Virus record (IMG/VR): IMGVR_UViG_2850796239_000003 | Coordinates: 1 to 14,699 of that record | Direction: 5' to 3' (one strand) | Source of the DNA: a virus | Lineage: Duplodnaviria; Heunggongvirae; Uroviricota; Caudoviricetes | Length of the DNA stretch: 14,699 bases | In this document: positions 843 to 14,699 of the stretch, one piece after another | Position numbering within the stretch: position 1 is the first letter of the stretch | How the letters are laid out: every line of letters begins with the position of its first letter | Made by a program: the position numbers and the translations under genes | The notes under the pieces: model-generated | What the model was told of the DNA's origin: nothing | Databases searched by the model: none | The model's input: only the letters and a program-made list of their open reading frames with translations

Positions 843-979
843 ATCACTACCTCCAAAGCATGAGTGAGATGACAACGTAACATTGATTGGAGATTAACAA
901 TAGATTGCTGATGTAAAAGATATGTATAAGCTTCGCTTTCAAAGTGGAGGATCTGATAGCGGCATCTAGGCTGTGTCCC

Positions 980-1495
980 TTAATTACGTAAGCGTTGATA
1001 AAAGAGTCGGATGCAGCCCAGTTTCACCATCGCCAGGTAATTTCTCGCCGTTTTGTCGTAACGCGTGGCGATGCGGCGATATTCTTTCAGCCGCCCAAAG
1101 CACCGTTCAACGACATTACGATTGCGGTACGCATCACGATCAAGCTGTGCACGTCCATCCGATGCCATTTTCTCATTTGACTTTCGGGGGATTACTGCCT
1201 TTATACCGTTATTTTTCAGCTCGTTGCGCAATGCGCGCCCTGAATACGCTTTATCAGCCAGTACCGCATGTCCACGGCGTTTCATGCTGCCGTTCTGACG
1301 CTGAACGCCAATCCCGTCCAGAAGTCGTTGCGCGAACTGGCTTTCATGAGCTTGTCCGGGGCTTAGCACGATATTTAACGGGAGGCCACTTCCGTCTGTT
1401 GCCAGATGGATTTTGGTGCCAAAACCGCCGCGAGAGCGACCCAGCCCATTATCTCCGTCGATATCGGGATGTTTTTTTGAGCACCGGCGGCACAT
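980..1495 (-). CDS. IS5-family transposase orfB (DDE catalytic part, -1 frame relative to orfA)
   Basis: Contains GLGRSRGGFGTKIHLATDG, LADKAYSG and the Y-x2-R-x3-E-x6-K signature (DAYRNRNVVERCFGRLK). Overlaps orfA by about 120 nt across an A-run. Confidence 0.85.
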   Translation of the reverse strand: MCRRCSKKHPDIDGDNGLGRSRGGFGTKIHLATDGSGLPLNIVLSPGQAHESQFAQRLLDGIGVQRQNGSMKRRGHAVLADKAYSGRALRNELKNNGIKAVIPRKSNEKMASDGRAQLDRDAYRNRNVVERCFGRLKEYRRIATRYDKTARNYLAMVKLGCIRLFYQRLRN

Positions 1496-1824
1496 TTCAG
1501 CGCCCGGATATTACTGCCATCCAGCGCGGTGGCAGACCAGTCAATAAAGCCGTTTGCATCAAGTAGCGAAAGCAACCTGTTGAAAATAATATTAATCACG
1601 CCTGACTTTGACCATCGGTTAAAGCGGTTATAAACAGTTTTCCATGACCCATATCGTTCGGGTAAATCGCGCCATGGTGCACCGGAACATAACACCCAGA
1701 ACATGCCATTGATGATTTTACGGTGCTCAGCCCATGGGCGTCCGGCCCGTGGTGTGGCGGGTTCAGGAGGTAACAGGGGCTTGATGATGGTCCATGCCTC
1801 ATCGGGAAGGTCGTAGCGAGCCAT
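1375..1824 (-). CDS. IS5-family transposase orfA (149 aa, N-terminal DNA-binding part)
   Basis: MARYDLPDEAWTIIKPLLP...GRPWAEHRKIINGMFWVLCSGAPWRDLPERYGSWKTVYNRFNRW, the conserved N-terminal module of IS5/IS427-type transposases. Confidence 0.85.
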   Translation of the reverse strand: MARYDLPDEAWTIIKPLLPPEPATPRAGRPWAEHRKIINGMFWVLCSGAPWRDLPERYGSWKTVYNRFNRWSKSGVINIIFNRLLSLLDANGFIDWSATALDGSNIRALKCAAGAQKNIPISTEIMGWVALAAVLAPKSIWQQTEVASR

Positions 1825-1884
1825 AGTTCAATATGTTGTGTAAACAGACAGTTACTATAGCTCAGATGATTAAGGGACACAGCC

Positions 1885-6318: not shown

Positions 6319-6856
6319 ATGTTATATGCATTTAAGCTGGGCAGAAAACTGCGCGGCGAGGAACCTTATTGCCCTGAAAAAGGCGGGAAAGGTGGCTCCG
6401 ATAAAAGCGCAAAGTATGCAGCAGAAGCTCAGAAGTATGCCGCAGACCTGCAAAATCAGCAGTGGCAGACGATCATGAAAAACCTTGCTCCGTTCACGCC
6501 TCTTGCGGAGCAGTATGTTAACCAGCTTCAGAACCTTTCCAGTTTAGAAGGTCAGGGGCAGGCACTTAATCAGTATTACAACTCTCAGCAGTATAAAGAC
6601 CTTGCAGGTCAGGCTCGTTACCAGAGTCTTGCTGCTGCGGAGGCGACGGGTGGACTTGGTTCGACAGCCACAAGCAATCAACTGGCTACGATCGCGCCTA
6701 CTCTCGGTCAGTCTTGGTTATCAAACCAGATGAGCAATTACAACAATCTGGCAAACGTTGGGCTTGGTGCACTTCAAGGTCAGGCAAACGCCGGGCAGAC
6801 GTACGCCAACAACATGAGCAGCATTGCACAGCAAAGCGCAGCTCTTGCCGCTGCTA
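6319..6856 (+). pseudogene. Ejection protein, P22 gp7-like, 5' fragment interrupted by IS copy 2
   Basis: ORF starts at ATG 6319 and runs into the IS, where the frame terminates artificially (...ARLCPLII*). Q/N/A-rich ejection-protein-like composition. Position matches gene 7. Confidence 0.7.
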
Positions 6857-6872
6857 GGCTGTGTCCCTTAAT
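6857..6872. repeat. Left terminal inverted repeat of IS copy 2
   Basis: GGCTGTGTCCCTTAAT, a perfect reverse complement of 7757-7772. Confidence 0.85.
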
Positions 6873-6916
6873 CATCTGAGCTATAGTAACTGTCTGTTTA
6901 CACAACATATTGAACT

Positions 6917-7366
6917 ATGGCTCGCTACGACCTTCCCGATGAGGCATGGACCATCATCAAGCCCCTGTTACCTCCTGAACCCGCCACACCACGGGCCGGA
7001 CGCCCATGGGCTGAGCACCGTAAAATCATCAATGGCATGTTCTGGGTGTTATGTTCCGGTGCACCATGGCGCGATTTACCCGAACGATATGGGTCATGGA
7101 AAACTGTTTATAACCGCTTTAACCGATGGTCAAAGTCAGGCGTGATTAATATTATTTTCAACAGGTTGCTTTCGCTACTTGATGCAAACGGCTTTATTGA
7201 CTGGTCTGCCACCGCGCTGGATGGCAGTAATATCCGGGCGCTGAAATGTGCCGCCGGTGCTCAAAAAAACATCCCGATATCGACGGAGATAATGGGCTGG
7301 GTCGCTCTCGCGGCGGTTTTGGCACCAAAATCCATCTGGCAACAGACGGAAGTGGCCTCCCGTTAA
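6917..7366 (+). CDS. IS5-family transposase orfA (149 aa)
   Basis: Identical translation to copy 1 orfA. Confidence 0.85.
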   Translation: MARYDLPDEAWTIIKPLLPPEPATPRAGRPWAEHRKIINGMFWVLCSGAPWRDLPERYGSWKTVYNRFNRWSKSGVINIIFNRLLSLLDANGFIDWSATALDGSNIRALKCAAGAQKNIPISTEIMGWVALAAVLAPKSIWQQTEVASR

Positions 7367-7761
7367 ATATCGTGCTAAGCCCCGGACAAGCTCATGAAAG
7401 CCAGTTCGCGCAACGACTTCTGGACGGGATTGGCGTTCAGCGTCAGAACGGCAGCATGAAACGCCGTGGACATGCGGTACTGGCTGATAAAGCGTATTCA
7501 GGGTGCGCATTGCGCAACGAGCTGAAAAATAACGGTATAAAGGCAGTAATCCCCCGAAAGTCAAATGAGAAAATGGCATCGGATGGACGTGCACAGCTTG
7601 ATCGTGATGCGTACTGCAATCGTAATGTCGTTGAACGGTGCTTTGGGCGGCTGAAAGAATATCGCCGCATCGCCACGCGTTACGACAAAACGGCGAGAAA
7701 TTACCTGGCGATGGTGAAACTGGGCTGCATCCGACTCTTTTATCAACGCTTACGTAATTAA
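7246..7761 (+). CDS. IS5-family transposase orfB (DDE domain, -1 frame)
   Basis: As copy 1 orfB, with two Arg to Cys differences (TGC at 7504-7506 and 7615-7617 where copy 1 has CGC). Confidence 0.85.
   Translation: MCRRCSKKHPDIDGDNGLGRSRGGFGTKIHLATDGSGLPLNIVLSPGQAHESQFAQRLLDGIGVQRQNGSMKRRGHAVLADKAYSGCALRNELKNNGIKAVIPRKSNEKMASDGRAQLDRDAYCNRNVVERCFGRLKEYRRIATRYDKTARNYLAMVKLGCIRLFYQRLRN
7264..7270 (+). other. Candidate -1 programmed frameshift heptamer A AAA AAC joining orfA to orfB
   Basis: In the orfA frame the codons are caA AAA AAc. A -1 slip enters the orfB frame (..SKKHPDID..). The same motif occurs in copy 1 at 1471-1477 as a reverse complement. Confidence 0.5.
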
Positions 7762-7772
7762 GGGACACAGCC
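7757..7772. repeat. Right terminal inverted repeat of IS copy 2
   Basis: ATTAAGGGACACAGCC, a perfect reverse complement of 6857-6872. Confidence 0.85.
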
Positions 7773-7774
7773 TA

Positions 7775-7926
7775 ATGCCAATAAACCATCAAGTCTTCAG
7801 ACTGCAATTAGTGGCGGAACGTCTGGTGCGATTGCCGGTGCAGGTCTTGCCAGCCTTTTGGGAACATCAACACCTTGGGGCGCTGGCATTGGTGCTGGTA
7901 TCGGATTGCTTGGTTCGTTGTTTTAA
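7775..7926 (+). pseudogene. Ejection protein, P22 gp7-like, 3' fragment (about 50 codons)
   Basis: Removing the IS and one TA copy restores one continuous frame: ...AAN ANKPSSLQTAISGGTSGAIAGAGLASLLGTSTPWGAGIGAGIGLLGSLF, stop at 7924-7926. The rebuilt ORF is about 229 codons, the size I recall for P22 gp7. Confidence 0.65.
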
Positions 7927-7935
7927 GGGGTAATC

Positions 7936-12139: not shown

Positions 12140-12150
12140 TGGATTTGCCC

Positions 12151-13056
12151 CTATATTTCCAGACATCTGTTATCACTTAACCCATTACAAGCCCGCTGCC
12201 GCAGATATTCCCGTGGCGAGCGATAACCCAGCGCACTATGCGGATGCCATTCGTTATAATGCTCGAACGCCTCTGCAAGGTTCTTTGCTGCCGTTAACCC
12301 GTCTGGTTTGGGCATGATACTGATGTAGTCACGCTTTATCGTTTTCACGAAGCTCTCTGCTATTCCGTTACTCTCCGGACTCCGCACCGCCGTGTTCTTC
12401 GGTTCAAGTCCCAACATCCGGGCGAACTGGCGTGTTTCATTAGCCCGGTAGCATGAACCATTATCCGTCAGCCACTCCACTGGAGACGACGGAAGATCGT
12501 TGCCGAAGCGGCGTTCCACCGCTCCCAGCATGACGTCCTGTACTGTTTCACTGTTGAAGCCGCCGGTAGTCACCGCCCAGTGCAGTGCCTCACGATCACA
12601 GCAGTCCAGCGCGAACGTGACACGCAGTCTCTCTCCGTTATCACAGCAGAACTCGAACCCGTCAGAGCACCATCGCTGATTGCTTTCTTTCACGGCCACT
12701 CTGCCTGTATGTGCCCGTTTCGATGGCGGTACAGCAGGTTTTCGCTCAAGCAACAGCGCATTCTGGCGCATGATCCGGTAAACACGTTTGGCATTGATCG
12801 CAGGCATACCATCAAGTTCTGCCTGTCTGCGAAGCAGCGCCCATACCCGACGATAACCATACGTGGGCAGCTCTCCGATAACATGGTGTATACGGAGAAG
12901 CACATCCGTATCATCAGTGTGACGACTGCGGCGGCCATCCATCCAGTCATCGGTTCGTCTGAGAATGACGTGCAACTGCGCACGCGACACCCGGAGACAA
13001 CGGCTGACTAAGCTTACTCCCCATCCCCGGGCAATAAGGGCGCGTGCGCTATCCAC
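12151..13056 (-). CDS. insD: IS2 transposase OrfB (InsD), 301 aa
   Basis: Translation [28 protein letters not shown]... with an IS3-family DDE integrase core. Overlaps insC in the -1 frame. Confidence 0.9.
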
Positions 13057-13379
13057 TTTTTTGCCCGTCCATATTCAACGGCTTCTTTGAGGAGTTCATT
13101 TTCCATCGTTTTCTTGCCGAGCAGGCGCTGGAGTTCTTTAATCTGCTTCATGGCGGCAGCAAGTTCAGAGGCAGGAACAACCTGTTCTCCGGCGGCCACA
13201 GCAGTAAGACTTCCTTCCTGGTATTGCTTACGCCAGAGAAATAACTGGCTGGCTGCTACACCATGTTGCCGGGCAACGAGGGAGACCGTCATCCCCGGTT
13301 CAAAGCTCTGCTGAACAATTGCGATCTTTTCCTGTGTGGTACGCCGTCTGCGTTTCTCCGGCCCTAAGACATCAATCAT
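13014..13379 (-). CDS. insC: IS2 transposase OrfA (InsC), 121 aa
   Basis: [41 protein letters not shown]..., a helix-turn-helix protein. Start taken at the internal ATG at 13379 rather than the 136-aa ORF-track start. Confidence 0.9.
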
Positions 13380-13470
13380 CTGTACTCCAATGACTAGTCT
13401 AAAAACTAGTATTAAGACTATCACTTATTTAAGTGATACTGGTTGTCTGGAGATTCAGGGGGCCAGTCTA

Positions 13471-13475
13471 GTATG
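13471..13475. repeat. IS2 target-site duplication (GTATG), right copy
   Basis: Identical to 12135-12139. Confidence 0.85.
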
Positions 13476-14676: not shown

Positions 14677-14699
14677 GGCTGTGTCCCTTAATCATCTGA
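14677..14699 (+). mobile_element. IS5-family IS (same element), copy 3, left end only (cut by the window edge)
   Basis: GGCTGTGTCCCTTAATCATCTGA is identical to the first 23 nt of copy 2 and is preceded by TA at 14675-14676. Confidence 0.8.

Follow-up and report, generated by a model that had tools for sequence, protein, structure and literature searches.

The gene for the P22-type DNA ejection protein gp7 in a Shigella prophage remnant is interrupted by one copy of the insertion sequence ISSfl7, and removal of this element together with one copy of its 2-bp target duplication restores the gene exactly. We consider it very probable that a single ISSfl7 transposition took place into gene 7 of a decaying Sf6/P22-like Shigella prophage, where it was a neutral hit among several, and nothing in the evidence contradicts the reading as a simple insertion. 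The window, that is the whole stretch of 14,699 bases that was analysed, corresponds with 0 mismatches in 14,699 bases to the 5.16-Mb Shigella chromosome CP026875.1 (GCA_002950355.1). A sister assembly, GCA_000193915.2 (S. boydii ATCC 9905 according to its protein record), differs by 2 SNPs up to position 13471.

The 5' part of gp7 is located at 6319..6856 on the plus strand and comprises codons 1-179 and the first base of codon 180; its frame opens with the ATG at 6319 and continues to GCC GCT GCT A at 6856, the last base of the left flank (GCCGCTGCTA). The second ISSfl7 copy of the window occupies 6857..7772, and the right flank (TAATGCCAAT) begins at 7773. The 3' part, also on the plus strand (7775..7926), opens with the remaining two bases of codon 180, runs through codons 181-229 to the TAA stop, and codes for the Gly/Ala-rich, hydrophobic C-terminal 50 residues (NANKPSS...GLLGSLF). 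The unstranded target dinucleotide TA is found twice, at 6855..6856, where the native site is CTAA within GCT GCT AAT GCC, and at 7773..7774, as established by reading the sequence and by computation. Joining 6319-6856 with 7775-7926 gives 690 nt, corresponding to 229 codons and TAA with no internal stop, and keeping both TA copies in the joined gene shifts the frame.

These results confirm the original prediction, made by inspection of the letters, that a gp7-like gene is cleanly split by a simple IS insertion. The 2-bp TA duplication is present, and the deletion of 6857-7772 plus one TA, which was expected to give about 229 codons, gives exactly 229 codons and the TAA. The expectation that nothing else in the gene is damaged was equally correct: the rebuilt gene carries no further lesion, neither frameshifts nor stops were found in it, and its two halves are contiguous in homologs. 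Also the size given there for P22 gp7 was right, since gene 7 of P22 (NC_002371) measures 690 nt; gene 11 of Sf6 measures 693 nt.

When the interrupted gene is read as it stands, the gp7 frame enters ISSfl7 and stops at 6879, producing 179 native residues followed by RLCPLII (186 aa). This chimeric ORF occurs in 5 contigs from at least 4 assemblies and carries the public annotation 'Phage DNA transfer protein [Shigella boydii ATCC 9905]'. Four assemblies agree and the inserted copy has private SNPs, and therefore it is unlikely that the IS is an assembly artefact. A 52-aa ORF at 7775-7933, called as a gene in the public record, was rejected as spurious; its frame differs from that of the gp7 C-terminus.

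The assignment to the gp7 family, already proposed in the original prediction, was borne out by a match of residues 1-229 of the rebuilt protein to positions 1-230 of the 230-position Pfam profile PF25688 (P22_gp7), with 439.9 bits (E 3e-132) against a curated cut-off of 28 bits. In a ten-sequence alignment the identity is 83% to P22 gp7 and 99% to Sf6 gp11. Several E. coli prophage proteins are identical to the rebuilt protein at 100%, apart from one Ser in a KGGKGG(S)S tract, and the same one-residue gap is present in P22 gp7. The IS junction falls in the block SAALAAANAN, which is invariant across the ten homologs, including P22 gp7 and Sf6 gp11. The intact gene of E. coli O104:H4 has the same junction as the rebuilt gene (GCTGCTAATGCC); the two genes show 11 codon differences, all synonymous, and one in-frame 3-nt indel at codon 27, and the shorter length, without these 3 nt, is common to P22 gp7 and to intact 690-nt E. 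coli alleles.

Concerning its position, gp7 lies between gene 14 (DUF2824) and gene 20 (Inj_translocase), which is followed by gene 16, and this is the place that it occupies in the gp14-gp7-gp20-gp16 block of the P22 and Sf6 records. P22 gp7 is likewise 229 aa long. It has been reported that a 20-residue propeptide of P22 gp7 is removed by host OpdA and that the mature protein begins KGGKG (PMC8402733); residues 21-25 of the rebuilt protein are likewise KGGKG, as in the sequenced mature P22 N-terminus, which makes the point after residue 20 a putative OpdA cleavage site here. The gene described here differs from P22 gp7 and Sf6 gp11 in being broken after codon 179, in a prophage incapable of forming particles, and in nothing else. 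A search by sequence found no solved gp7 structure. A suspected gp7-gp20 fusion, suggested by proteins of 706-722 aa that clustered with the rebuilt protein, was discarded, as these are unrelated gp16-like proteins drawn into the cluster by low-complexity sequence.

The uninterrupted state of the gene is present in related genomes. The exact 229-aa rebuilt protein is present on 112 public contigs under the name 'MULTISPECIES: DNA transfer protein [Enterobacteriaceae]'. Ten intact genes coding for it, located in apparently complete P22-like late operons, carry 12-17 substitutions each with respect to the rebuilt gene, all necessarily synonymous because the proteins are identical. The 24-nt junction matches that of the rebuilt gene in nine of the ten; in L040 the intact gene departs from it by a single synonymous change, located 9 nt downstream of the joint. 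Alignment of the rebuilt gene to its homologs and a search for the empty site in related genomes had both been suggested as checks. The first gave the full-length PF25688 match and a junction as in the intact genes, and the second, using an uninterrupted 119-nt probe, recovered the empty site in 370 of 5426 complete E. coli genomes. The filled gp7::ISSfl7 junction was found in 0 of these 5426 genomes.

The inserted element (ISSfl7 copy 2, IS5 family) is 916 bp long, lies on the plus strand and contains orfA (6917-7366) and orfB (7246-7761) between perfect 16-bp terminal inverted repeats (16/16; GGCTGTGTCCCTTAAT and ATTAAGGGACACAGCC). Over 916/916 bases it is 99.3-99.8% identical to Shigella and E. 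coli plasmid copies annotated as ISSfl7 or ISSfl1, among them copies on virulence plasmids of Shigella: PGAP names the matching plasmid elements 'IS5-like element ISSfl7 family transposase', and the original pCP301 record names the same elements ISSfl1 ORF1/ORF2. Both ORFs pass the equivalog cut-off (110 bits) of the NCBIfam model NF033580 (transpos_IS5_3), orfA with 132.7 bits on profile positions 2-112 and orfB with 173.5 bits on positions 112-257. In the overlap of the two ORFs a slippery heptamer, A AAA AAC, is found at about 7266-7272, orfB is in the -1 frame, and the PGAP CDS for ISSfl7 has 845 nt, which is not a multiple of 3; together these features suggest that the transposase may be made by a programmed -1 frameshift.

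The flanks of ISSfl7 copies 2 and 3 in our sequence and of ten copies in the sister genome all have the form YTA|IS|TAR. Accordingly, its target is YTAR and the TA is duplicated, a rule to which the gp7 site CTAA conforms. Copy 2 shares with ISSfl7 and with the ISSfl1 of pCP301 the length of 916 bp, the 16-bp inverted repeats, the TA duplication at YTAR and the IS5_3-type DDE transposase, and it differs from the annotated elements by two private C>T changes, at IS positions 648 and 759. Both substitute Arg with Cys in OrfB, and one of them is located within the block Y-x2-R-x3-E-x6-K, as read from the sequence. In the whole public collection two genomes have this OrfB variant, both at this locus and nowhere else, while the consensus OrfB was recovered from 24 contigs; the sister genome alone has it in at least 10 places.

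The prophage is a remnant of the Sf6/HK620-like (P22/Sf6-type) group. Upstream are genes of the PALP, GntP-permease and LysR families, probably dsdA, dsdX and dsdC judging from their order, and then a torI-type excisionase. From the left end, the window holds torI, two early-left ORFs, ISSfl7 copy 1 and the coat gene from codon 86; the middle is formed by gp4, gp10, the needle gp26, gp14, gp7 with ISSfl7 copy 2, gp20 and gp16, and the right end by an mnt-like gene, IS2 and the tailspike gene with the start of ISSfl7 copy 3. The order of the late genes assigned with Pfam (coat', gp4, gp10, gp26, gp14, gp7, gp20, gp16, tailspike) agrees with P22 and Sf6, and the remnant is about 97% identical to intact prophages of E. 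coli O104:H4 and other strains. Four IS lesions were counted, three due to ISSfl7 and one to IS2; the latter (1331 bp, minus strand, 12140..13470) sits between the mnt-like gene and the tailspike gene and is flanked by a 5-bp GTATG duplication. Neither stops nor frameshifts were found in coat 86-423, gp4, gp10, gp26, gp14, gp20 and gp16 (about 7.5 kb), and the remnant genes contain only a handful of residues not found in the compared homologs. The coat gene is incomplete and everything between it and the early-left region is gone, including the portal and scaffold genes, which stand before coat in intact relatives, and for this reason no virions are expected.

ISSfl7 copy 1 (969..1884, minus strand) sits at a deletion junction between the 3' end of an ead/Ea22-like early-left gene, to its left, and coat codon 86, to its right. 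The native coat gene reads AAC|TAC ATC at this point, and therefore all that stood between the two flanks is gone. By the gene order of Sf6 and P22, the lost material presumably included what remained of the early region, the immunity, replication, lysis and terminase genes, portal and scaffold, and the N-terminal part of coat. On the coat side the TA is native, and the Sf101 and HK620 homologs lack the TA of the other side. The junction may have arisen by IS-IS recombination, through intramolecular transposition or from a mosaic ancestor; it had been described as rearranged in the original prediction, as the union of an ead/Ea22-like gene with coat codon 86 verifies. Copy 1 has the consensus sequence of 13 copies and differs from copy 2 at 2/916 positions.

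A third copy had been anticipated as well, and its first 23 bases are indeed in the window, beginning at 14677 (14677..14699, plus strand), inside the tailspike gene. The full copy (L003, 18359-19273) is 915 bp long, and a 1-bp deletion breaks its orfB. Its flanks, CTA|IS|TAG, resemble those of a simple insertion; such an insertion was rejected for this copy, since excision with one TA leads to a stop after eight codons. In an alignment with the nearest homolog the flanks cover residues 153-423 and 576-708, and the loss of about 152 residues between them would correspond to a deletion of about 450 bp. No intact relative of this tailspike was found among E. coli genomes, and a protein search of phages gave homologs at 40-51% identity only. 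Contiguous flanks can thus be demonstrated for the gp7 copy alone among these ISSfl7 copies.

This difference was the core of a contrast drawn in the original prediction, where the gp7 insertion was held to be probably recent, unlike the rearranged junction of copy 1, and an internal timing contrast within one prophage was proposed. The structural side of the contrast is real, copy 1 being rearranged and copy 2 clean. Its timing side is not supported by the divergence of the IS copies, by the co-occurrence of the lesions or by the state of the other remnant genes, which are as clean as gp7, and these data fit either order of the gp7 insertion and the large deletion. A clean target duplication says that the copy has not been rearranged since it inserted and is no proof of youth. 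Once either lesion had killed the phage, the gp7 codons were neutral, and for this reason the undamaged gene dates the first inactivating event and not its own insertion. What is evident is that the gp7 insertion is older than the split of the two sequenced strains, which are 2 SNPs apart in 13.5 kb, and that it is fixed across this lineage.

Two orders of events were weighed. The first, which we regard as possible but rather doubtful, is that the gp7 insertion is the older lesion, perhaps the first inactivating hit, and that recombination or intramolecular transposition of other ISSfl7 copies afterwards produced the deletions at copies 1 and 3. The two private nonsynonymous changes of copy 2 are common to both sister genomes, and their density of 2.2 per kb, compared with 0.15 per kb between the sister genomes at this locus, would place the insertion long before the strain split if the changes arose in place. 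However, two substitutions are inside the range of 0-2 seen in ten other copies, which were chosen for an identical OrfB and are consequently biased towards the consensus, and the changes may have come from a donor copy since lost, or may have been erased in the other copies by gene conversion. Furthermore, a genome with the gp7 insertion alone was not found.

The second, slightly less probable and in our opinion unlikely, is the one closest to the original prediction: the gp7 insertion would be distinctly younger than the rearrangement at copy 1, with two separable epochs of IS activity. Copy 2 alone has contiguous flanks and a verifiable duplication, copies 1 and 3 stand at deletion junctions that each need at least one extra event, and the rebuilt gp7 has no amino-acid change with respect to the ten intact alleles, whereas the coat fragment has V90, a residue absent from ten homologs. 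The comparison of divergence among the three IS copies, which had been recommended as a check, gave nevertheless the opposite direction, with 0 changes in copy 1, 2 in copy 2 (the variant confined to this locus) and 1 in copy 3, namely the single 1-bp deletion. With counts as low as 0, 1 and 2, IS divergence cannot serve as a clock that orders the copies; for copies of equal age, both changes would fall on copy 2 one time in four. The intactness of gp7 cannot order the lesions either, given the neutrality of its codons since the first of them, and gp14, gp4, gp10 and gp16 are equally clean.

The distribution of the junctions also speaks against a younger gp7 insertion. Every informative assembly contains both the chimeric gp7 ORF and the truncated coat ORF, and two short-read contigs extend from where copy 1 ends to where copy 2 begins. 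A search for intermediates with the chimeric gp7, the truncated coat and an identical gp14 returned only genomes with both lesions or with neither. The dN/dS of the remnant genes with respect to O104:H4 and other prophages had no discriminating power, since candidate private residues were few and stops and frameshifts absent. A metagenome scaffold (L031) shows a coat gene broken in a different way and ends before gp7.

To return to the single transposition that we favour, the sequence of events may be outlined as follows. ISSfl7, a DDE transposon of the IS5 family whose target is YTAR and whose insertion duplicates the central TA, would have transposed once into CTAA at codons 179-180 of gene 7, in a prophage adjoining the putative dsdA-dsdX-dsdC genes of the Shigella chromosome. 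The insertion truncates gp7 after residue 179 and removes the conserved hydrophobic C-terminal 50 residues, probably leaving a null gene. The same prophage has lost everything from the early-left region to coat codon 86 and carries two further IS lesions, so that the gp7 insertion would represent one neutral hit in IS-driven prophage decay, left untouched by later recombination. This neutrality assumes that the prophage was already dead, or that killing it had no cost.

Concerning function, DNA delivery by P22 requires three ejection proteins, of which gp7 is one, and residues 21-154 of gp7 suffice only for incorporation into procapsids and particles (PMC8402733). The same source states that partial function of P22 N-terminal amber fragments is unknown (PMC8402733). 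The interrupted allele is probably null, judging from the loss of the conserved C-terminus, and its phenotype is in any case moot because the prophage cannot build a capsid. We also considered the retention and expression of the 186-aa product (gp7 1-179 and 7 IS-encoded residues) as a domesticated factor, which we judge highly improbable. If it were true, a procapsid-binding product might enter superinfecting P22/Sf6-like particles and poison ejection, and domestication would account for the intact flanking ejection genes in a dead prophage. Even less credible, and refuted by the exact rebuilding of gp7, is a composite transposon in which copies 1 and 2 enclose 4.97 kb of late genes and the gp7 insertion is one of its ends: its arms would be inverted, 920 nt long and 4968 nt apart, but gp7 codons 1-179 and 180-229 form one contiguous gene across copy 2 with a 2-bp duplication, and therefore copy 2 inserted alone, and the internal segment keeps its native order and orientation relative to both outer flanks.

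Pseudogenisation driven by IS elements and decay of prophages are established features of Shigella genomes. The locus shares with this pattern the many identical IS copies, the insertions into genes, the deletions adjacent to IS elements and the rearrangements, and nothing distinctive was found in it; the sister strain carries at least 10 ISSfl7 copies, and rearrangements vary between the sister strains. The gp7::ISSfl7 allele is thus ordinary genome decay of a kind already known in Shigella, and its significance beyond annotation is small. Regarding annotation, the public 186-aa 'DNA transfer protein' and the spurious 52-aa ORF would be better described as one interrupted pseudogene. More generally, the age of an insertion relative to the other lesions of a dead element cannot be read from the fact that its target-site duplication is intact and its host gene undamaged. 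The locus nevertheless offers a clean and fully verifiable single IS hit in a prophage gene, and gp7::ISSfl7 may serve to mark the lineage of this Shigella clade.

The ISSfl7 copy that splits gp7, the P22-type DNA ejection gene, carries two private substitutions, at window positions 7504 and 7615 (positions 648 and 759 of the element). Both change CGC to TGC (Arg to Cys) within the DDE domain, the second at the residue that directly follows the Tyr in the Y-x2-R-x3-E-x6-K block. The public annotation places a gene call of 52 amino acids at 7775-7933, in a different frame from the C-terminal part of gp7, which resumes at 7777; this ORF is an annotation artefact arising from the split gene.

The flanks of ISSfl7 copy 1, at the junction of the coat and early left genes (959-968 and 1885-1890), are unrelated to each other, yet TA is found at either end. 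On the coat side this TA is native (AAC TAC ATC). Its counterpart at the early-gene end is missing in the homologs from Sf101 and HK620, in which the sequence reads GCGGCATC|CAGTGTG. Copy 3 lies in the tailspike gene (starting at 14677-14699 in the window; within the region 17203-19690 of L003, the locus that extends past the window) and is also flanked by TA at either end, and the tailspike frame stays broken after precise removal of the element. In the alignment with the closest homolog, the tail fibre of vB_EcoM-ZQ1, the two flanks match separated blocks (residues 153-423 and 576-708), so that about 152 residues appear, from sequence comparison, to have been deleted at the junction. Loss of one base at position 695 of the element (C5 shortened to C4) also breaks the orfB of this copy.

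A complete IS2 of 1331 bp, whose TnpA and TnpB fit the NCBIfam IS2 models, occupies 12140-13470. It is accompanied by a 5-bp duplication, GTATG, and its site is intergenic, with an mnt-like gene on one side and the tailspike gene on the other. This is a second clean insertion in the prophage remnant.

ISSfl7 copies 1 and 2 (967-1886 and 6855-7774) form an inverted pair separated by 4968 nt, across which the late-gene block could be inverted. Copies 2 and 3 form a direct pair with a spacing of about 6.9 kb, across which gp7'-gp20-gp16-IS2-tailspike' could be deleted. The two long assemblies, L003 and S. boydii ATCC 9905 (L004, the sister genome), extend across copies 1 and 2, and neither rearrangement is visible in them; two short-read contigs concur on the block between these copies.

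As far as the right end of IS2, S. boydii ATCC 9905 differs from the window by 2 SNPs; from the equivalent of position 13472 it runs on into an RHS gene. At another locus of the same genome (L027), an ISSfl7 copy connects a lambdoid prophage with the DNA that bounds copy 3 on the right (acyltransferase, integrase). Therefore, either two nearly identical strains differ in IS-mediated rearrangements, or repeats have been connected in another way in the draft assembly.

Concerning other genomes, at least 32 chromosomal places in E. coli FDAARGOS_943 (NZ_CP065615.1) match the ISSfl7 end, an IS load that is Shigella-like, though the genome is labelled E. coli. E. coli GCA_027494275.1 carries a different P22-like prophage remnant at the same chromosomal site, dsdA-dsdX-dsdC-torI, with torI joined to the tail-needle gene. 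This remnant represents independent decay at a shared attachment site.
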